A stretch of 64,000 bases of DNA. Origin: Schmidtea polychroa. Its lineage: Eukaryota. The translations under genes and the position numbers were made by a program. Positions 402-54,885 of this stretch are shown one piece after another. Below the pieces are notes generated by a model. The model was not told where the DNA came from, did not search any database, and was given only the letters and a program-made list of their open reading frames with translations. The stretch spans positions 52,762,001 through 52,826,000 of the forward strand of contig CM097888.1 of NCBI GenBank assembly GCA_044892525.1, given 5' to 3'. How positions within the stretch are numbered: the first letter of the stretch is position 1; each line of letters starts with the position of its first letter.

Positions 402-1596
402 CTATGTTAAATACTGATTTAAATACTGATCATTTACTTCAGATTCTGACGTGAGATCATTCTCAAGGTCTTCATACGAATAAGTCAGATTTCCTAAATT
501 ATTTTCTTCTTGAATACAGTGAATTCTTCTTGTATTATTACTCCTTAATAGAGGGCAGTTAGTAAAAAAATGATCATTTTTACCGCCTATTAAACAACAC
601 TTGCTTAAAGGGCAATTGTTCCGAATATGACCTGATTCACCACAACAGTAACATTGACCGGGTTGTAAAGGTCGCAATTCTGGTTCCGGTAATCCTTTCG
701 CTTTGTTGTAAACTCGTCTTGCAATATGTTTCAAAGAAACCGTAGGCCTATTGTATCTCTCATTAACCAATAAACTTTCTGAGCTTCGTCTTCTTTCGGT
801 ACCATATCGTCTATTGTCATAATTTTCGTAACTTCTATTTTTACTGACATACCGGTTAGTCTCAGGATGGTCTAATCAATGGTTGAACATTCTGCCTTAC
901 TGGAATTTTATTTCTTGTTACCGATGCATACGACGATTTTTTCCTATCATCTGCCAATACAAATACCTCTCTGGTGTCTTCTGTATGTAAAATATTTTCA
1001 AAATTTACATTCAATTTCTCTATTTCTGTAAGAGATACTTCTGGGTTCATTGCAATTGCATCCTTAACTTTTTCTGAATACATACGTCTTGTTACAATAT
1101 CCTTGACAATCATGTCTTCTGTTTGATTTGCGGAAAGTACTTCGCGCACTAATTTCCTCACTCTGATTACAAAATTTGCAAACCTTTCTTTCGATCTCTG
1201 CTTTATCAGACTCATGTCTTCGATGTTTTGCAAAAAACTTTTGAATTTTACATATTTTAAAATAAAACAACTTTTTATCTCTTGATCTGAGGCCGGAGTC
1301 TTTTGTGCTTCCTTAAAGGCCATCCAAAAATCTTTTGCGTCTCCATGCAATAACAAATCGAATGTTGCTCCTAAATTGAGCGAATTTATCGTCACAAATT
1401 CTTCAATAGATACAAGCCAGTCCTTTGCATTTTCTTCTTTTCCTCCGAAAAACTTCTTTATCACTGGATAAATTGAATCTTGAATATTCTTTGGCGAAGA
1501 TTCCACAATTTTCTGCCTTTGCTGTGATCTCGTCAGAGCTGAGATTTCGGCCTGGTCGCCAGTAACATTTTTATTAAAAGTCATTAAAACTAACAC
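402..1596 (-). mobile_element. Ty3/gypsy-like gag remnant (capsid-like region plus zinc knuckles), split by one frameshift near 870-880
   Basis: ORF 862-1596 (gag-like helical region) continues in a shifted frame (TNRYVSKNRSYENYDNRR...) into ORF 402-770, which has a CX2CX4HX4C knuckle CYCCGESGHIRNNC and a degenerate second one (CLIGGKNDHFFTNC). No pol follows within 1-401. Confidence 0.75.
1551..1561 (-). promoter_or_regulatory. Putative tRNA primer-binding site (TGGCGACCAGG) of the gag remnant
   Basis: Minus strand reads ...AATAAAAATGTTAC-TGGCGACCAGG at the 5' end of the gag ORF. TGG start is typical of an LTR-element PBS; the same TGGCGACCA occurs at 41398 ahead of a gypsy pol remnant. Confidence 0.5.
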
Positions 1597-1882
1597 GTTA
1601 TTTTCAAATATATATATTTATTATAAAATCTGAATATTTAAACAATATATCAATTTAAATATCATCACTTATTATTATTATTATTTTGAATAAATTATAC
1701 ATCATTCGATAGGGAAATCGATTTTCAGATAAAATGTGAATAAAAATTAAAAGTTATTGTAAATTTTTGTTAATTATACAATGCTAATTGCATAACGTAA
1801 TCAATACCAAAAATTAGAAATAAATTTACATTTTTTTACAATTTTCTTTATTTAGATCAGTTTTTATATTTCCTAATTTTAG

Positions 1883-2663: not shown

Positions 2664-5600
2664 ACCTGATGAGGTTAAGCATATTATATTGCACTCCCAA
2701 TACCGTATATCAAGGTGTATCAATGATACAAATTCTATTCTATCACCATCAAATATTCATGTTATTTAATGATAATATTCAATGTTAAATTTTCATATTT
2801 ATATTGAAATAAAAAATTAATTGAATTGAATTTATTCATTAGTAATTTCAATTATTTTAAATGCCAAATATCAATTTAATTAATAATCAATATAATTGAA
2901 GTGAAATCATAATTAATTATAAATTATTCCAAAATTAATTTCGACCAATAAATAATTATAATTGAATAAATTTTATATAAATATTTATCTTTTCAATTGT
3001 ATTTATATTTCGCATTTCATATAGAACATTTTTTATTGTTTTGATAAAGATAATTAGTTTTCTATTTATGATTGCTAAAAATAAATATTAAAAATTCTAT
3101 TTTTCCTTGTGTTTGATTATGTTATAGTAGTGATAGTATTTCAATATTATCAACTGGCATATTAAAATCAGCCATTTTCGAGACTGAGAAAACTGGGCTT
3201 GAAAATGCCATAAAAATATTAAAAATATTTTAATAACCAACCCACTTTTCCGATATTCAAAAACAATATTTTCCCATTTCCGTAAAGGGTAAAGTGACCA
3301 TTCGGTATTGTTTCTTGTGTATTTCATCTGGTGGACTTCGATACGATTTGTATATGCTGAAAGCGATTGTGTGAATTTACATGGCAAATGATAAGATAGT
3401 TTTTTTTAATATTTATTAGTTTATTTATTTGATAATTGTATTATTTGATATGAATTTGTTCAGGTTCTTCCAATTCAAAATAAGATGAAATACCCTGAAA
3501 GGTATGTTACAAGGGCTGGCGTTATAAATACGGCAATGGTGTTTGTCGTATGTTTATATGCTGCCATGGGATTTTATGGGTTCCTGAAATTTGGAAATGA
3601 TACCCAGGGATCTATCACATTAAATCTTAAACATGCTCCTAAGTGACGCTTTGGAATTTCTTTTATTTTATCGACTTTTATTTTTTTAGTTGGCTTATTC
3701 CTATTCAACCGCTTTTTGTATTTTCTATTCTGGTATCATATCTCCTTCAAATCTACATTCCTGTGTTCATATGCTCAAAATTAATTCAAAAACTCGAGTG
3801 CCATAAGAACACGTCACCTCTGCGCCAGAAGATTCACCTGAAGATTATTCCACCACTGATTGTTATATTCTCATGTAGGAATAATTTCTTTGATACTTGA
3901 TTATTTTAATTGTCGGTTAAATTATCGGTTCTCACGTTTTTGGTAATTTTATTATTATTGAGGTTTCCAATAAGCGCATGAGATAGGTTTATTATTTTAT
4001 TTTCATAACCTCGCCTCATTTCAGTTCACATTTTGAAATTTTATTCTGATTTGAACCGAGTAAAAATTTACCGAAAATATAATATAATATTGTCAAAAAT
4101 AGAATAAAATTTAATGAGTTCAAGTTATATAGTAAGTGATTATATCTATGTGATTAAAATTTATAATAATACCAAATATTATTATTACNNNNNNNNNNNN
4201 NNNNNNNNNNNNNNNNNNNNNNNNNNNNNNNNNNNNNNNNNNNNNNNNNNNNNNNNNNNNNNNNNNNNNNNNNNNNNNNNNNNNNNNNNNNNNNNNNNNN
4301 NNNNNNNNNNNNNNNNNNNNNNNNNNNNNNNNNNNNNNNNNNNNNNNNNNNNNNNNNNNNNNNNNNNNNNNNNNNNNNNNNNNNNNNNNNNNNNNNNNNN
4401 NNNNNNNNNNNNNNNNNNNNNNATCTTCTTCTACATCAATTTCCACTGCTTCCGATTTATTTTCTTTCTCAAAACCCCATCATCATAGAACTCGTCGACT
4501 AAATCAGCAATAACATTTTCCTCAACTATCTCATCAAATTCCACGATCTCCTCTTCAATCAGTAGTTCATTTTTATCTATACCCATTTCAGATGCAACAA
4601 TTTCCAGATAATCAATTTCTTTCTCCATCTTCTCCGTATAATCCCATATCATTACCATATTTCAAAAAAACATTTTGTCATGGTTTCCATTTTTATGAAT
4701 TCTCAGCCCTTTAAAATAATCTTGATAGAATCAAAAATTCCCATACCTGAACTCGTATTTCAATCATTGAAAGTAAATGTAAAATTTGTAATATTCGTAT
4801 AGGTGCTTTAAAACTTCGTATCATACCAGCGTCTATATTTTCAAATATTTTGGATTCTTGGTTTTCCTATTATCATCGGTGGTATTTTTTCTCCTAAAGA
4901 AAAACGTCAATAAAATTGTTATGCGATCTTTTGCCATTTTTCCTCCTTTACACTCCTTTCCTTTTTGGTTTAAAATTCGTTTCAGTAATTCCCTATAAAA
5001 ATAGCCGGTTTCGTCGGTATTGAATATATTTGCTGTATACTAACCTTCCGTCAATACATCCAATTTCAATCTCCATTTATCAGCTGATTCAAGATTTAAT
5101 ATTGTTCTTAGATTTCCATTTCGGCCGCCAGCCCTCTGACGCTGTAAAATTCTGCTTATCGGTTCCCAAACTGGCAGCTATGCAAATAGCTTAAAATGGG
5201 TCTACTTATCGGATATCCATATGCCATTGCTATTATAGAATTATATTTACATCAGACTGCTTAACAATTCTACATCTATTCAATGATCTATTGTTTTTAG
5301 GAATTTTAAGATTCTATGCGATTTTTCTTATACTAGTTCCCGCATCCGATTGTTTGATAATTTCTTTTTTTGTTTCCAGAAGAATTTTTTTCTGCTCGCC
5401 ATTTATGAGGAGTATTTTTTTTTAAATGTCTTTCATAAATTGATAGATTTATTATAATTTTTTCTCCATTTTCTACCATATACGAAGATGTATATTATGA
5501 AGTGTACTTTATAGAGAGGTTTTAATGTATTTACATCTTAATTCTTTTCAGTTTCAAATATTTATTTTTTTCTATTTACATTTTCAAAATTTAAAGGTTA

Positions 5601-8600: not shown

Positions 8601-9596
8601 CAGGGATGGGGAACCTTTTTATTTCCATAGGCCACATTGAAATTTGTCGCCTCCAAATGGGGCCGCAGTCAAAAAGTATGTTAACATTAATTAATTTCAT
8701 TTTAAATCTTTTGTTTAGACACAGTTTAAAACAATGTTTATTATTAGTCTTCAGATTTGAAAAATGCAACTGTACGCAATATTTTGGAAAATTTTTATTA
8801 TTTATGAATCGAAAACTTGATGCAAATAAGTCATCATTTTACAAATGAGTGCTCAATAATCTTATTTATTCGTCTACATACGTTTTGTATTTATGGGTGT
8901 GAATGATTCACTTTTATATTTCGTTCTTTGTAAATCCTCAAAATTCAAGGTTTTTTATATAAATTAAAATTTATTTCGATGAAGCTCTGGGAGGCCTTAG
9001 GTTCCCACCCCTGTTCTAAAGAGATTGATAGATTTATATATTGACAGNNNNNNNNNNNNNNNNNNNNNNNNNNNNNNNNNNNNNNNNNNNNNNNNNNNNN
9101 NNNNNNNNNNNNNNNNNNNNNNNNNNNNNNNNNNNNNNNNNNNNNNNNNNNNNNNNNNNNNNNNNNNNNNNNNNNNNNNNNNNNNNNNNNNNNNNNNNNN
9201 NNNNGATTGATTGATTTGTATATTACTAGATTAATAAAGTGATTGATATATTGATATTCTAATACCAAGGGATGTTTATGACTTTTATTAAATGCTTTAT
9301 AACATTTTGATACATGACTGATTCCTATAATAAGTGATCTGTTGTTTACAGATGCAATGGCCGTATCGATTCCTCATTTGGATTTAATGTTGTCATTACT
9401 CGGTGCCGTTAGTAGTTCATATTTAGCTCTAATTCTGCCTCCAATTATCAACGTCGTTTCTCGTTATTCAGAGAATGACAAAAGGGATTGGAGGTTCCAC
9501 TTGGGAGTGCTTTCAGATGTTCTGATATTTTTATTTGGATTGATAGGTTTTATTGGTGGCACAGCTAGTTCAATATATGCATTGATTAAGGCATAA
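1883..9596 (+). CDS. SLC36A: Proton-coupled amino acid transporter (SLC36/PAT, AAAP family), 3' part; exons 1883-2158, 3464-3642, 3690-3874, 9352-9596
   Basis: Spliced frame is continuous with matching phases (0,2,1): ...FAFEAINL|VLPIQNKMKYPE...GFYGFLKFGNDTQGSITLNL...N|WLIPIQPL...FSY|AMAVSIPHLDLMLSLLGAVSSSYLALILPP...; these match SLC36 motifs FAFEGIGVVLPLEN, GYLxFG, IPxLDLxISLVGSVSSSxLALIxPP. 5' exons lie outside the window. Confidence 0.9.
2270..2345 (+). repeat. Dispersed repeat, related copies at ~61845-61911 and ~62120-62165
   Basis: TTGAAAAAGGCAGT(G/T)CCAAAAT...TATCAAAAA(AA)CATCGATATAT(T)TACTGATT shared between the loci. Confidence 0.75.
2484..2579. repeat. Inverted repeat: ~36-bp arms, 24-nt loop
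   Basis: ATAAACATTACAGGCTTTGTGATACCCAGTGCAAAT (2484-2519) vs ATTTGCACTGGGTATCACAAAGCTTGTAATGTTTAT (2544-2579); one mismatch (G-U as RNA). Confidence 0.95.
2578..2660. repeat. (ATT)n microsatellite
   Basis: About 27 uninterrupted ATT units. Confidence 0.98.
3464..3874 (+). CDS. SLC36A: SLC36 transporter exons 3464-3642 and 3690-3874 (47-nt intron)
   Basis: Acceptors ttcag(3463) and tttag(3689); donors GT at 3643 and 3875; phases consistent. Confidence 0.85.
4431..5470 (-). mobile_element. Decayed pogo/Tigger-type (Tc1/mariner superfamily) transposase
   Basis: Minus strand ~5040-4900 translates NIFNTDETGYFYRELLKRILNQKGKECKGGKMAKDRITILL, the pogo/Tigger FNxDETGL...GxKxxKxRxT motif; acidic C-terminal remnant in ORF 4431-4658; many stops/frameshifts; ends approximate. 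Confidence 0.8.
6188..6436 (+). mobile_element. hAT transposase C-terminal dimerization domain remnant (ZMYM1-like)
   Basis: VVVALRIIHSMPVSVAIGERSFSKLKLIKSYLCSTRAQDRICGL matches the hAT motif PVSxAxxERSFSKLKLIKxYLRSTxxQxRLxGL. Confidence 0.8.
8601..9013. mobile_element. hAT-type MITE
   Basis: Termini CAGGGATGGGGAACC ... GGTTCCCACCCCTG (imperfect TIR); flanks TTCTAGAT / TTCTAAAG (6/8, decayed 8-bp TSD). Confidence 0.7.
9352..9596 (+). CDS. SLC36A: SLC36 transporter last coding exon
   Basis: Acceptor tttacag(9351); IPHLDLMLSLLGAVSSSYLALILPP motif; stop TAA at 9594-9596. Confidence 0.9.
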
Positions 9597-10088
9597 TTTG
9601 TGCATGGTTCACTGATTATGATATAGATATAAACTTGTAAGATAATATTTTGTCAATTGTCATGATTTGCATATGTTTTTTCAATAAATTTATTTTCTAA
9701 TCTTGACTTGCTGAATTATTGGTATGGTAAATATTGTCAATATAAGCTGTGTAAATAGGATAAATAGCGCATTAATTAAACATCCCAAATATGATATTAA
9801 AATATCTACACAGCAATAATAAATGTTTAATATTTCCAATTTATCAATAATGCACATTTTTAATCGATGATAAAGATGAATTCACACATTTCTTGTGATA
9901 TTGGTCTTGGTTTTGCTGTAAACACTTGTCTTCGGATGTACTTAGAGTAAAATGTCGAACGGGAATAAATAATTCTAAATTCTGTTTGTCCGATCATTTC
10001 CGGGGAAATTTTTTGTCCAAAACTTTCTTTACTTGATATGCCTATTGGGCAAGTGTTCCATTTTGGTGGATTATCGTTTGCGTCAGAT

Positions 10089-10219
10089 GGGGATGAAGTT
10101 CAAAATCTCGCAGTTTACACCACTTAAGCTTCCCCGGCCGTAAAGTAAGTCGTCTACAAACGATTTAATGCCAACACGTAAATCATTAAAAATGATTCAA
10201 ACATCCAAACTATATTCAT
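10089..10219 (-). rRNA. 28S rRNA 3'-terminal fragment (dispersed pseudogene, distal part)
   Basis: Minus strand TAAATCGTTTGTAGACGACTTACTTTACGGCCGGGG...CTGCGAGATTTTGAACTTCATCCCC resembles the conserved eukaryotic LSU 3' end (TAAA..TT.GTAGACGAC.T..TT..GG.CGGGG...CTGCGATC..TTGA..TCAGCCC). Confidence 0.75.
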
Positions 10220-13200
10220 TAGGGTGGGTCGAAAATTTTTTTTTTCTCCAAACATGCCAAAAAAGTTGTGCTTATGCTAGAAAATGAAATATCCCTGCAA
10301 AAGACTGCTGTTTAAAAGGGTTTACAGGTCCCAACTTTTGTTTGTATGTATTAGTACTATCCCAGTAAAAATGCTCGCACACGTGCCATTGTAAATTCAT
10401 CCTGCAAGCAGTCACACGCTTGCAGAAAGACCATTTTTGACATGCTCTATTCACAAGTCCAAGCTAACGCGTGCATGTATAGAGAGGTTAATTCACGGAA
10501 GCACCTTCACACAAGCACTCACAAAGACAATTTCTTCTGAACAATACTAACACACACACTACAGTCAACACATAATCCACATGGATACTACTAGTCAGTC
10601 TAAACTCAGATAATTTAATTTGTTTCGATTGGATGTCAAGTGTTTGCTGGACCTAATTAAAAAAGTTAACTTAATGATTCACTTTTATTTTGCCAGAGCT
10701 TAGTACAGAAGAGCAGTTATGAAGGGACAGAGAAATAAGCAATTTCGCAAAACAAGAAGTAAATCACGTCATTGTCTGTTTGGTCAAACTTGTGAACTAC
10801 CCAGAAACCAATTACCTACTTGTGAAGATGTGTTTCGTGATTACTGTTACAATGAGAAATGTACGCAATTTCATACTGGCTTTAACGAACAAGCAACTCT
10901 TCTCGCAAATAAGGTGAAGGAAATTTATATGAAGGCAAGTATCCCAACTGTTGAGTTCAGTAGTATTGTGGTTCGTGTCAAGCGACTAATATCAAAAGTG
11001 CGTGAATTAGAGAAGTATCCAGAATGCAAGAGGTCATCTGCCAAATTTCAAGATAAGTTAAGCTCGTTTTCCAAATTGTTTGACATATGTTGCTGCAAAT
11101 GTTTTAATGATGGTGCTCGTGGAAGAAGTCAGTGTACATGCCGATTGGCCTTGAAAATTCCTACCTTAGAGTGGGAGTTCTGGATTGACCAACAAACTAC
11201 CAGAAACATGAAAATCGGAAATACGGACAGACAGGAAATCTCAAAATTGAAGAGAAAACAAACGAAAAGCAGCCCTACAGGAAAAGGAAAACAAATGAAA
11301 AATGAAATAATGGACACTGAAGTTAACGATCTACATCCGACCTCAAGAAGTGACACGGAGAATGAAGCCGCTAGTGATGAAAGTAAAGATAAGTTAGACA
11401 ATTCAACAGAAAGCTCAGAGTCAAGCGTAGAAGAATGTGATGAATTTCAAAATAGAAGACATTATCCTGAATTAAGTAAAGCTGTTGACAGATGTGGTGT
11501 GAGCAACAGAGACACGTGTTTGCTAGTAAACGCTTTTCTGAAAGATATGGAACTGTTATCCTCTCAAACAATCATCGATCCCGCAAAATTACGGTGTCAG
11601 AGAAAGTACTGGAGGGAGAGAGAAATTGAACAGCATTCAGCAGAAGCGAAAAACTTGATTTGCCTCGGTTTCGACGGGAAACAAGATTCCACCTTACTTC
11701 ATAGAAGGATCCTAAAAGAGGAGCATTATGTGATTGTCGCCTTTCCAGGGGATACATATATCGATCATGTTGTACCTCAAAGTAGTAAAGCTGTGGATAT
11801 TGGCAAAGAAATCATGTCAATCATCGTTAGCACGCAGTCCTCACTGACCCTTCAAGCAATTGTGTGCGATGGAACCAATACAAACACCGGAAAAAATAAT
11901 GGAATAATCAGAAGACTCGAAAAAAGCCTAGGGCGACCTCTACAATGGCTGATATGCTTGTTGCATGCAAATGAATTGCCATTCAGGAAGTATTTTTCAG
12001 TCGTCGATGGTGGAGAAACAAAAGGTCCAAAAACGTCATGTGGTGAAATAGGAAGCGTTCTTGATTTTGATCCAAAAGACAAGCCCGTAGTAGCCGTTAT
12101 GTCCCTTCCTGGAAAGGTCGTAGATATTAGTGAAAATGTCAAGAAAGAATTGAACACTGATCAATTGTATTTCCTCAGAGTATGCTTGGCAGTCCAGAAA
12201 GGGTACCACAACAACAAGGATGTCCCTTTTCTACAAATGGCACAACCAGGAAATTTGAATCACAGTCGCTGGCTAACGAAAGCTAATAGAATTCTGCGAC
12301 TATATATGTCCGAAACTGCTCCATCTGAACTTCTCATGCGAATAGTGAAATTTATTGTCAATTTCTATGGACCGTCATGGTTTTATATAAAGACTCACTC
12401 GTCATGCCAAGATGGTGCAAGAGATATTTTTTATATGCTCCAACTTCTGCAGGATTTGGATCCATCAGACCAAGAAATCATCTTTCCTGTCATTCAGAAC
12501 AACAATTACTTCTCACATCCAGAAAATATACTCCTAGCTGCTGTTGGTGATGATGATGAAGAAATCAGAAAGTTTGCAACAGAAAAAATCATAACTGCAA
12601 GACAAAATTTTCTCCCTTCCGAAGTGATTCGCACTATGGACAAGAATACTGTCTTTCTTCAGTCGTCTGCTACATCATATGTTGACATGATTGACTGGAC
12701 AAAATGTAATTTGACGCCTCCCCCTCTTTTATCTCATATATTGGATCATGAATTGAAGATGAATAAGAAAATTACATTAGAACAATTTCCCTGTCATTCT
12801 CAAGCCGTCGAAAGAGCCATCAAAGATGTTTCTTCTGCCAGTTGCAAAGTGTTTGGTCACAAGTCCAGACATGGTATGGTACTACTGTGTAAAAAATCAA
12901 GGAAGGAATTGCCCAAGGTGCAAAGCAAAGCTGATTTCATGTGACTTCTTTTTATGCCCTCGCTAATACATTTCTAAACTTTTGGCTGGATGTTTTTAAT
13001 AAAAAATAATTTCGAAAGTTGATTTTTGTCTTTGAAAAGGATAATTCAAATTTGGCCCTTCCTAATCACTGACGTTGTCAGGATATATTTCAATGCGGGA
13101 TGAGGACACAGAATATACTATCTCAGCCCAAGAGAGTAAATAATATACTTATAAGCTCTTAAGAAAGCTACATCTAAATATGGACAAAGGCGCAAAACAC

Positions 13201-13391
13201 ATTACGACACTAGCCAAATTACATTGTTTTCACACTTATGTTGAACTGCATTTTCGGAGAAAAGTTGGGAGCAGTAAATGTCCATAAATCTAAGTAAAAT
13301 GGTTTGATTCGATTTTTCTATACCAAAATACAACTTTTTAACCATGTTTCCTTTCTTGAACTCAAAATTTATTAACATTCGACCCACCCTA
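10220..13391 (+). mobile_element. Apparently intact autonomous hAT-superfamily DNA transposon (hATm-like termini), 3172 bp
   Basis: Perfect 14-bp TIR TAGGGTGGGTCGAA (10220-10233) / TTCGACCCACCCTA (13378-13391); 8-bp TSD ATATTCAT (10212-10219) / ATATGCAT (13392-13399), 7/8; single long ORF inside. Confidence 0.9.
10719..12944 (+). CDS. hAT-like DDE transposase, 741 aa, uninterrupted
   Basis: Motifs in hAT order: FDGK (D1), CDGTNTNTG (D2), WLICLLH (CxxH), HSRWLT (RW), HSQAVER (E); bounded by TIRs and TSD. Confidence 0.88.
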   Translation: MKGQRNKQFRKTRSKSRHCLFGQTCELPRNQLPTCEDVFRDYCYNEKCTQFHTGFNEQATLLANKVKEIYMKASIPTVEFSSIVVRVKRLISKVRELEKYPECKRSSAKFQDKLSSFSKLFDICCCKCFNDGARGRSQCTCRLALKIPTLEWEFWIDQQTTRNMKIGNTDRQEISKLKRKQTKSSPTGKGKQMKNEIMDTEVNDLHPTSRSDTENEAASDESKDKLDNSTESSESSVEECDEFQNRRHYPELSKAVDRCGVSNRDTCLLVNAFLKDMELLSSQTIIDPAKLRCQRKYWREREIEQHSAEAKNLICLGFDGKQDSTLLHRRILKEEHYVIVAFPGDTYIDHVVPQSSKAVDIGKEIMSIIVSTQSSLTLQAIVCDGTNTNTGKNNGIIRRLEKSLGRPLQWLICLLHANELPFRKYFSVVDGGETKGPKTSCGEIGSVLDFDPKDKPVVAVMSLPGKVVDISENVKKELNTDQLYFLRVCLAVQKGYHNNKDVPFLQMAQPGNLNHSRWLTKANRILRLYMSETAPSELLMRIVKFIVNFYGPSWFYIKTHSSCQDGARDIFYMLQLLQDLDPSDQEIIFPVIQNNNYFSHPENILLAAVGDDDEEIRKFATEKIITARQNFLPSEVIRTMDKNTVFLQSSATSYVDMIDWTKCNLTPPPLLSHILDHELKMNKKITLEQFPCHSQAVERAIKDVSSASCKVFGHKSRHGMVLLCKKSRKELPKVQSKADFM

Positions 13392-13656
13392 ATATGCATA
13401 GAATGGTTAGAGTTTAAATATATGGCTAAGCCACATCCACTAACTTGCGTTAATGAATAATAATATTGCTTCATTACGAGAATGGCGCAAAATATCATGA
13501 TTTTTAGGCGAGATTCAGACTTAGAGGCGTTCAGTTTTAATCTCTCGGACAGTTGCTTCGTGCCACTGACCTTTCGATCAAGCACATTTACCAGTGATCC
13601 GAATCTGCGGTTCCTCTCGTACTGAGCAGAATTACTATTATCATGACAAATTATAT

Positions 13657-13693
<37 letters not shown>

Positions 13694-13734
13694 TCCAGCT
13701 CACGTTCCCTATTAGTTCCCTATTGATCCCAACG
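13392..13734 (-). rRNA. 28S rRNA fragment (dispersed pseudogene, includes sarcin-ricin loop)
   Basis: Minus strand has CTAATAGGGAACGTGAGCTGGATTTAGACCGTCGTGAGACAGGTTAGTTTTACCCTACT, the sarcin-ricin loop AGTACGAGAGGAAC (13610-13623) and ACTGAACGCCTCTAAGTCTGAATC; no 18S/5.8S or remaining 28S nearby. Confidence 0.93.
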
Positions 13735-15887
13735 TATATTACCAAATAATTATTACAATCTTTCTAAATGTACAATTTAATTAACACAACAAATATATAA
13801 AATAAATTATTCCGTTGATGTGATTAACTGTGCTATTGGGTAAGAAATAATATTTACCTTGTAATCATTAAGATCCAAATATCTCCGGAATCTCTTTTTA
13901 ACTAATTTATTTTGTTTTTTATAAATTTCCTTTTTACCTAATATTATTTTCTTCTTGCAGCGTAAAGCGCATTTCTGTAATTTTACTTCGCTATCTGATA
14001 TAATAATTCAGATGAAGAATGATTCGGATTCAATCTCTATTTTTATATAAACTCGCTACTTGGGCTTCCTTCGTCTTTTCCCCCAACTCCCCTTTAATCA
14101 TAATATATTAAAAATGATATAAAAAATTCAATGGGTTTACTTGCCAGACTTTTCTCCGAATTAATCAATTAACGGTTTCCTGTTATGACACGTTTTTATG
14201 CTTGAAGCATCCCCCATAAATTTTTCGATACTTTCATTTTCTCCATCGTAAAATTTTACTACCCTCACGCCTTGCGCCACGTTACAATACTTTCATGGGA
14301 CTTTATAACGTTTTAATAACTATGGGTACCTATTGAAAATTTAATTCCACTTAATTTAAATCATTTAATTAATCAACTAATTTAAATAATAGAAATTATT
14401 CGGTATCATTCAAATAAAGTAATTACAATCTTGAGTGGGAAAAAGAAATTTAACTAATTTTTTCAGCTTAATAATTTTAAAAATTAACATTAAATGTATA
14501 TGAAATGTCGTATGAAATCTTTTGTTCAAATAAGAACCTAGTCAATTGCACGAAATAAAAATTATCCTTAAATTTAAGATTTTGAAATCACTTTTTTTCG
14601 TCAATGAATACATTTTACATTTTATTTTCTTTCGACTCACTTAACATTATATAAACTACACAATAATACCTCATTTTGCATTTATAACTGCTAGTAACAT
14701 TCTTCACAGTATGAACATATGATCCATCTAGCACGGTTGCTTCTGATTGGCTGAATAATAGAATGGCTCGTTCGAGTAATGAGTTATTCGGTTGGTCATT
14801 AGTCGGAGGACATTTTGATGAGTCTTATGTGATGAGTCAATGTAGAAATATAACAAAAGCAGTGAATCATTGCAAACTTATTTTGCCTCAGTCAAAAAAG
14901 AAATTTCGCAATATTTTATCTTGGGTTTTTATTTCAGAACCGATATTATTCGAAAATTTCCTTAATACTAATAATATTATTATTCATAAACTAAGACTTT
15001 TTACTTTTACATCTTTTTATTTCCTCAGCAATAAAAATATTATAATAATATCAGCAATATGTAATATTATAATAATTAGTATAACCATAATAATAATATT
15101 AATAATAAGANNNNNNNNNNNNNNNNNNNNNNNNNNNNNNNNNNNNNNNNNNNNNNNNNNNNNNNNNNNNNNNNNNNNNNNNNNNNNNNNNNNNNNNNNN
15201 NNNNNNNNNNNNNNNNNNNNNNNNNNNNNNNNNNNNNNNNNNNNNNNNNNNNNNNNNNNNNNNNNNNNNNNNNNNNNNNNNNNNNNNNNNNNNNNNNNNN
15301 NNNNNNNNNNNNNNNNNTAATAAATAATAATTATAATAAAACAATAAAGTGATAATTTAAGCCTTTTGCTGCGAATAATGTATTTAATGAAAAAATTTTC
15401 GACTATAAGATAGTCCTTGTCAATCTCCTGGAATTTAGCAATATCCTTCCCGAAAATACATTTCCATCTTTCTTTTATTTCTTTTTTCTTAATTCTCATT
15501 GGTTATAAATATAATATATATAATGATATACTTTCTTTTTCTGGATTTTTTTTTAAAAATTTTACTTAAAATTAAAATTAAAATAAAATAAATATCATTT
15601 AAAATTCAAAATGACAAAAACTAAAACCTTTAAATTTTTCAAAGCTTCTATAATTAGCTTCTAGAAGCCCAATAAAATATTTCAAAATATTTCAAAATAT
15701 TTTAAAATAAAACCTTCAATAACCATTTATATAAGCTATTTAAATATTTCAATAAATGTGTCTATTTTGATTTTTAAATCCTATCTTTTGAAAGTATATT
15801 TCCTAAAATTTTCTATATTATTTTAATTATTACTTTTTTTAAATTCATTATGTTTTATTTTTTATATATTATCAGATATTCTCAAGG

Positions 15888-53600: not shown

Positions 53601-54724
53601 AAAATTGATAATAAATAAAAATACTTTTTTTTATTATTGAAACAAATAAAAATGTTAAATGTTTATAAAATTACAATAATAAATTTAGTATGTAAATGCG
53701 AATGAAATATATGATGAATGAAATCTGTTCTTCTGAAAATATCGATATTTGACACTGAAAATTCTCCTCAAATATATTAAGTGTGTTTAAATAATATTGT
53801 AGAAAAATAGTGTTGTTTTTGAAATAAATACGAAATTCATGATAGCTAATAGAACATTTTCGACTTTAGCTGATCTTCCCGAGTGAAATTTTGTTTGTTA
53901 AAAGAATGTTAAAAAACAAAAAGTTTAATTAATTAATTAATTTAAAAATTCGTTTTGAACATTAATCATTAAAATATGTTGAAAAATTGTCGTTAGACAC
54001 AGAATACATTAAAATATTGAAGAAATATTTTTCAAATAAACTGTCAGTTTCAATACAAATTATTTATTCTCATTTAATTACGATATTTTATTACATTTCA
54101 AAATTTTCCATTAAACTCATCAAATCACAAAGGGGGCTGTGGATCAAATTATTGAGATTATTCATTAGCAATGTGATATGTAAACATAANNNNNNNNNNN
54201 NNNNNNNNNNNNNNNNNNNNNNNNNNNNNNNNNNNNNNNNNNNNNNNNNNNNNNNNNNNNNNNNNNNNNNNNNNNNNNNNNNNNNNNNNNNNNNNNNNNN
54301 NNNNNNNNNNNNNNNNNNNNNNNNNNNNNNNNNNNNNNNNNNNNNNNNNNNNNNNNNNNNNNNNNNNNNNNNNNNNNNNAACCAAGTCATTAGCGCAAAA
54401 TTAATTATATAATATTTTAAAGGCTCAAACAATAAAATTAATCTAAAATTTAACAGATTTGTCTGTGAGTTATTGGAATTCTGAAAATCGATTTCCGATT
54501 GTGGGAAACAATTAGATTGCTGCCATATAGAATTGGTAGAACTGTTACAGAAATTGTTCAATTGATTTAATGGCGATTTCTACAATTGTCCTCTTATGGA
54601 GATTCATGGACAATTTATGGGGAAATTAATTCAATGGGTCTGCCAGTCATTTCTCACTGACCAAATGAAATTATTGCATAAATATAAATTATTAAAGCTT
54701 GATATTATTCCCCAATAATTGGCA

Positions 54725-54885
54725 GCGTATTCTAGGTTTATAGCGCTATGATATAGTTACATTTCACATTACTGTATAATTTGTCATAATAACAGTTACT
54801 CTACTCAGTAGTACTTGTGCCTTGAATCTGCATTTCAATGCCGCCATTCGAGGGATTGTGACTGAACGCCTTGATTTCTGAACTC
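54725..54885 (+). rRNA. Decayed 28S rRNA fragment (same segment as 13500-13734, internally deleted)
   Basis: TACTGTATAATTTGTCATAATAACAGTTACTCTACTCAGTA aligns with TACTATATAATTTGTCATGATAATAGTAATTCTGCTCAGTA of the 13.6-kb copy; GGATTGTGACTGAACGCCT follows; sarcin-ricin loop deleted. Confidence 0.75.

Follow-up and report, generated by a model that had tools for sequence, protein, structure and literature searches.

The window, a 64,000-nucleotide stretch of the Schmidtea polychroa genome assembly, contains a full-length hATm-type DNA transposon lying within a fragment of the 3' part of the 28S rRNA gene. This arrangement very probably results from a one-off insertion into an already dispersed, decaying 28S 3' fragment, made by the ordinary preference of the family for AT-rich nTnnnnAn targets. 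As found it is minor: a young transposon nested within an rRNA pseudogene, real but ordinary. It does stand as a clear negative result on an rDNA-specific hAT, which would have been notable if true.

Anatomy of the element and its host fragment

The 3,172-bp element is bounded by perfect 14-bp terminal inverted repeats (TIRs; TAGGGTGGGTCGAA and TTCGACCCACCCTA) and flanked by an 8-bp target-site duplication (TSD) whose copies are alike at 7 of 8 positions (Table 1). It differs from the family majority at 11 bases (11/3172, 0.35%) and at six transposase residues. Because four of these six substitutions strike conserved positions (residues 174, 293, 460 and 569), including residue 293, an R in all 23 homologs compared, the element may be impaired though full length. 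The earlier description of the element as intact holds for its length, TIRs and 741-aa reading frame, and needs care as to activity, given these four substitutions. A stop at 10701 was considered as gene-breaking, since it interrupts the 756-aa frame of the family majority, and was rejected as such because most homologs start near the ATG at 10719.

With the element and one TSD copy removed, the two arms were colinear to nt 3221-3685 of the genome's own 28S (3,695 nt), which was located with Rfam and used as the reference for the fragment alignments. The fragment carried 12 substitutions in 457 aligned nt (2.6%) and one 8-nt deletion, and its 3' arm stopped 10 nt before the Rfam-defined 28S end. 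The right arm matched RF02543 (eukaryotic LSU) at E 1.2e-25 when 6 kb was searched under an E-value setting; no match passed the gathering setting when the entire window was searched. The sarcin-ricin loop motif begins at 13610. These results bore out the first-pass annotation, made from the letters of the window, in placing a hAT element within a 28S 3' fragment and in joining its flanks into one colinear piece. The spacing it gave between the GAATC and TAAATC landmarks (about 170 nt) was plausible and is 164 nt exactly, in the fragment and in the array alike, while its limits of 10089 and 13734 needed correction, as the 28S match covers 10080-10219 and 13392-13716.

The fragment lies outside any array, about 480 bp beyond an exon matching an amino-acid transporter. 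This exon (9318-9596, plus strand) was identified by PF01490 (E 8.7e-11); the 3' region of the transporter gene may include the fragment and element or lie close to them. A second rDNA type was considered as the source of the fragment's differences and rejected, with none closer among the best 40 of 1,108 candidates and the site allele in no empty copy. Elsewhere in the window we observed a second, much older 28S relic (54704-54810; 72% over 108 nt, 28S nt 3210-3317) and a 251-aa open frame at 862-1617 (minus strand), Gag-like by eye as in retrotransposons.

Table 1. Coordinates of the transposon, the 28S fragment and the array inserts (window positions unless a locus or contig is given)
Feature	Position	Strand	Basis or remark
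Full-length DNA transposon of hATm type, 3,172 bp	10220..13391	+	TIRs; copy comparison; left end matched exactly 397 times in the genome
Left terminal inverted repeat, 14 bp, begins TAGGGTG	10220..10233	+	hATm termini per the available part of PMC6004678
Right terminal inverted repeat, finishes CACCCTA	13378..13391	+	
Left target-site duplication ATATTCAT	10212..10219	+	array has ATTTTCAT at same site
Right target-site duplication ATATGCAT	13392..13399	+	one mismatch vs left copy
Transposase ORF, 741 aa, ATG at 10719	10719..12944	+	putative catalytic D319, D384, E698; CxxH 413-416
5' arm of 28S fragment (TSD and 28S nt 3221-3537), holds sarcin-ricin loop	13392..13716	-	9 substitutions in 317 nt
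28S fragment, 3' arm (28S nt 3538-3685)	10080..10219	-	3 substitutions in 140 nt, one 8-nt deletion
Rearranged 5' junction of 28S fragment	13717..13735	-	10-nt duplication of fragment's first bases plus short 28S-like patch
Antisense insert at 28S nt 3094-3097	L093:6610-9876; other units in G000 C21 1-110000, C97 90001-150000	-	

The transposon family and its classification

The genome contained 397 exact matches to a 19-mer from the left end. Searches with the two ends gave 614 and 635 candidates, and the best 40 of each, which were scored, were all near-identical. Eighteen copies picked among the best-scoring matches were fetched whole, with both ends in view in 15; the other three (L103, L118, L119) were without a right end in the stretch fetched, and internal deletions were observed in several copies (L032, L044, L047, L071, L073). 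The 15 full copies measured 3,167-3,174 bp (10 of the 15 having the same length as the window element) and diverged 0.13-0.44% from the family majority. An identical 8-bp TSD was present in 13 of the 15 and a 9-bp TSD in none. Judged from these comparisons, the family has undergone a recent burst, with about 400 near-identical copies over all four large contigs, and it is already spawning non-autonomous forms. It is possibly a source of active transposase, the 741-aa frame being open in 7 of the 15 sampled full copies.

The available part of PMC6004678 describes hATm elements as having 5'-TAGGGTG...CACCCTA-3' termini and a TSD of 8 or 9 bp. The window element has these termini and its family an 8-bp TSD, and AT-repeat-like targets and a single transposase ORF are further features in common with hATm as portrayed there. 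An hATm-3 TSD is given as TATATATA in the portion of PMC8721813 consulted. The element differs from hATm-6, for which PF05699 is reported in the accessible description; this C-terminal dimerisation domain, a hAT criterion, was detected at E 0.1 in 0 of 25 aligned members, that is, the window protein and 24 homologs. The TIRs also differ in length, 14 bp here and 417 and 575 bp in two hATm-6 elements from that description. A Pfam search of the window transposase returned 0 families and a PDB sequence search no match, and the named proteins among 298 transposase homologs were uncharacterised.

A structure model built from 25 sequences (pLDDT 83) was compared with known structures by Foldseek. 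The ten best rows were all Hermes (PDB 4d1q and others; best E 8.4e-6), at about 11% identity and TM 0.32/0.44, with ISCth4 (E 3.4e-4) and the P element (E 6.9e-4) not far behind. Residues D384 and E698 were invariant in 25 of 25 aligned rows, FDG and CxxH were conserved in the alignment, and D319, D384 and E698 are likely the catalytic residues. The predicted model thus has the features of the hAT superfamily (a DDE triad of putative catalytic function, the C/DxxH motif, a helical insertion and an RNase H-like fold). Hermes, a hAT of the Ac group, follows the same target rule, T2/A7 (PMC8721813, in part), as all 57 other copies here. The element would work like a hAT with hATm ends, and its formal filing is provisional, set on termini, TSD and predicted fold. 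The first-pass label of hAT therefore stands in the broad sense, given the termini, the TSD and a predicted fold nearest Hermes; more specifically the element is of a divergent hATm type. A recently expanded hATm-type family that is missed by Pfam and has a clear target profile is useful for annotation.

Occupancy of rDNA sites, target preference and probable sequence of events

The right TIR-28S junction was found once in the genome and the left junction once, both at the window locus, using exact patterns that miss mutated junctions and one assembly; as the two TIRs are identical, these patterns would detect either insertion orientation. The uninterrupted 28S site occurred 819 times, in arrays and dispersed pieces together, with 93 of 100 listed empty sites reading ATTTTCAT. 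Occupancy was therefore 1 filled to 819 empty (95% upper bound 0.4%). For insertions at other positions, six stretches totalling 570 kb were read from the array of some 800 units; they contained 33 empty sites, no TIR, and no match to the element by blastn or tblastn. Longer array units (16-20 kb), considered as possible hosts of the element, held non-LTR retroelements and other inserts instead, and two 28S matches 3,184 bp apart on one contig (C1), a distance near the element size, were two 28S-plus-spacer pieces with no element.

Flanks were examined for 57 of the approximately 400 copies, picked by best score, and in the 1.5 kb next to the end examined, none of the 58 end loci (57 distinct other copies) matched the 13.5-kb rDNA unit. 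Insertion at the array site would give left ends that follow CAT. All 52 left ends of this class were listed: 50 map to the four large contigs, and the other 2 to small contigs that showed no rDNA in the 10 kb fetched. Another left-end class had 100 of 104 listed, all 100 on large contigs. The element itself contained no rDNA-derived sequence (best E 0.44).

The 57 other TSDs had T2 and A7 in every case and T3 or A6 in none, and ATATATAT was the TSD in 20 of them, giving a family preference for nTnnnnAn targets that are AT-repeat-like. In either orientation the array 8-mer ATTTTCAT breaks the T3/A6 rule, and its score equals or exceeds that of just 1 of the 57 TSDs, while the window TSDs score in the mid-range, at or above 24 and 25 of the 57. 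Since both window TSD copies carry the same change from the array 8-mer at position 3, in no empty 28S copy, the simplest account is that this change was already present in the fragment when the element inserted; it turned the array 8-mer into a typical target. The fragment differs from the array at 12 of 457 positions and the element from its family at 11 of 3172 (Fisher p 5e-6), making the fragment about 7-fold more diverged. Because of this difference (2.6% against 0.35%, where concerted evolution, i.e. homogenisation of the array, could inflate the 2.6%), the fragment likely predates the element insertion.

We infer from these observations an RNA origin of the fragment and the following order of events. 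A 5'-truncated 28S 3' copy, probably reverse-transcribed from rRNA, would have entered the genome about 480 bp beyond the final exon of the transporter gene. The fragment would then have accumulated substitutions, one of them creating the typical target. Transposase, in the recent burst, would have inserted the element there with duplication of the 8-mer, and one TSD copy and the element would have mutated slightly further. Counting against a one-off insertion is the rarity of a hit in so small a target: the chance of the family hitting one was estimated post hoc at about 1%, from a rough count of some 30 pieces of about 0.5 kb and about 400 copies.

The first-pass annotation had offered two readings, a chance insertion into a dispersed copy and a relic of an rDNA-targeting family, the latter to be given up if other copies had random flanks and the rDNA array yielded no junction reads. 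At the level of the assembly this is what is seen, with 0 of 57 flanks in rDNA and a single junction locus against 819 empty sites, and together with the element-free 570 kb of array it supports the chance insertion; an rDNA-targeting hAT is a most improbable reading of the window element. Random flanks alone would be insufficient against targeting, because Pokey, a 28S-specific piggyBac element of Daphnia, also occurs at many non-rDNA sites (PMC3849761, available part), but the empty site does refute it. The same text describes Pokey as recurring at one 28S site, as having dispersed targets that resemble this site and as carrying spacer-derived repeats. Like Pokey, the window family consists of DNA transposons that occur both inside 28S sequence and at dispersed sites, but it has none of these three features: its one filled 28S site is dispersed rather than in an array unit, and its wider flanks are AT repeats or unrelated DNA. 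That the family nevertheless targets, or once targeted, this 28S site as Pokey does, the window copy being a relic moved from the array, seems to us extremely unlikely. The existence of Pokey, both dispersed and rDNA-specific (PMC3849761, as above), lends this some plausibility, as do arrays that tolerate site-specific elements in this genome, but all 819 other sites and the 570 kb of array are empty. The family, at 0.13-0.44%, is too young for array copies to have been purged during its spread. The array 8-mer retains the invariant T2 and A7 and yet is among the poorest targets, and both the 7-fold greater divergence of the fragment and the lack of rDNA sequence in the element point the same way.

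A chance insertion into a true array unit, after which the 28S piece and element were copied or moved here as DNA, is also very unlikely. Movement at the DNA or precursor level does occur, as 3 of 22 rows of dispersed pieces continue into spacer, but the position-3 change common to both TSD copies is absent from every empty 28S copy, the flanks have diverged further than the element, and the fragment stops close to the mature 28S terminus, like most element-free pieces. We give hardly any credence to an assembly artefact fusing two repeats: although each part is a high-copy repeat, the two arms meet at the TSD without losing colinearity by a single base, and private substitutions, in no array copy, occur on both sides. 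Dada, cited in the first-pass annotation as an rDNA precedent, targets snRNA, tRNA and 5S genes rather than 28S according to the available parts of PMC8869645 and PMC3706591; its targets are gene-specific (PMC8869645, in part), and the window family shows no gene-specific target. A search of the openly accessible literature returned no 28S-specific hAT, and the accessible part of a 2024 review (PMC10946416) gives hAT only in a 5S spacer.

Dispersed 28S pieces and inserts in the arrays

Twenty further isolated sites picked from the empty-site list and one earlier locus yielded 22 pieces in 21 loci, with 84-100% identity. Seventeen of the pieces ended at nt 3675-3712, three ran into spacer and two were short. 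At the other end, 21 of the 22 started at or after nt 3097, with 5 at 3097-3104 and 6 at 3133-3157; the pieces were all chosen for holding the hAT site and are thus biased to the 3' end, yet the limit at 3097 is unexplained by this bias. Pieces in L002-L004, L100 and L120 started at 3098-3101 and continued into spacer. The window piece is an ordinary member of these dispersed 28S 3' pieces.

That most pieces stop close to the mature 3' end suggests that RNA served as the template. The window fragment (nt 3221-3685 of 3695) has the mature 3' end, 5' truncation and lack of spacer of a processed 28S pseudogene. It has no poly(A) or repeat tail and no flanking TSD, the longest word common to its flanks being 7 nt and away from the junctions, and because no tail or TSD was found, capture at a break appears as likely as classical retrotransposition for this fragment. 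The second cluster of 5' ends (3133-3157) lies around a U-run at nt 3149-3153, where other eukaryotes have a base-methylated uridine, and such a uridine could stop reverse transcription.

Antisense inserts of 2.2-6.2 kb were observed at 28S nt 3094-3097 (about 3095) in 9 of the 10 array 28S copies with both flanks in view, in stretches chosen for long unit spacing, such that 9 of 10 is no genome-wide rate. At least three sequence types were distinguished by their ends, and one insert encodes Peptidase_C48 (Ulp1-type protease) and RVT_1 (reverse transcriptase). This combination of protease and reverse transcriptase is the make-up of NeSL-related elements, and the inserts are probably NeSL-type. 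Some NeSL-related elements target 28S in planarians according to the available part of PMC4640811.

The dispersed 28S 3' pieces could be by-products of the NeSL-type retroelement at array nt 3094-3097, whose cut or reverse transcriptase would free and disperse the 600 nt that follow its insertion site. We put this forward tentatively and think it rather unlikely, on the grounds that 21 of the 22 pieces start at or after nt 3097 and 17 of the 22 stop near the mature 3' end. If true, the novelty would lie in the host fragment and not in the hAT. Mammalian SINE28 likewise consists of dispersed 28S-derived copies (PMC4994717 and PMC10946416, each in part), and the likeness is in 28S pieces spread outside the arrays; the pieces here differ in their ragged 5' ends, with no common tail or TSD seen and no sign of self-copying.

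Other rearrangements were observed in the array 28S copies of one contig (G000 C21, L081-L091). These included inserts near nt 2406-2553 in 4 units, where 666 bp replaced approximately 146 nt, and inserts at nt 2448-2468 and at nt 2464 (3.3 kb, with a poly-A end). The 28S 3' end (nt 3334-3695) was duplicated in three units of the same contig.
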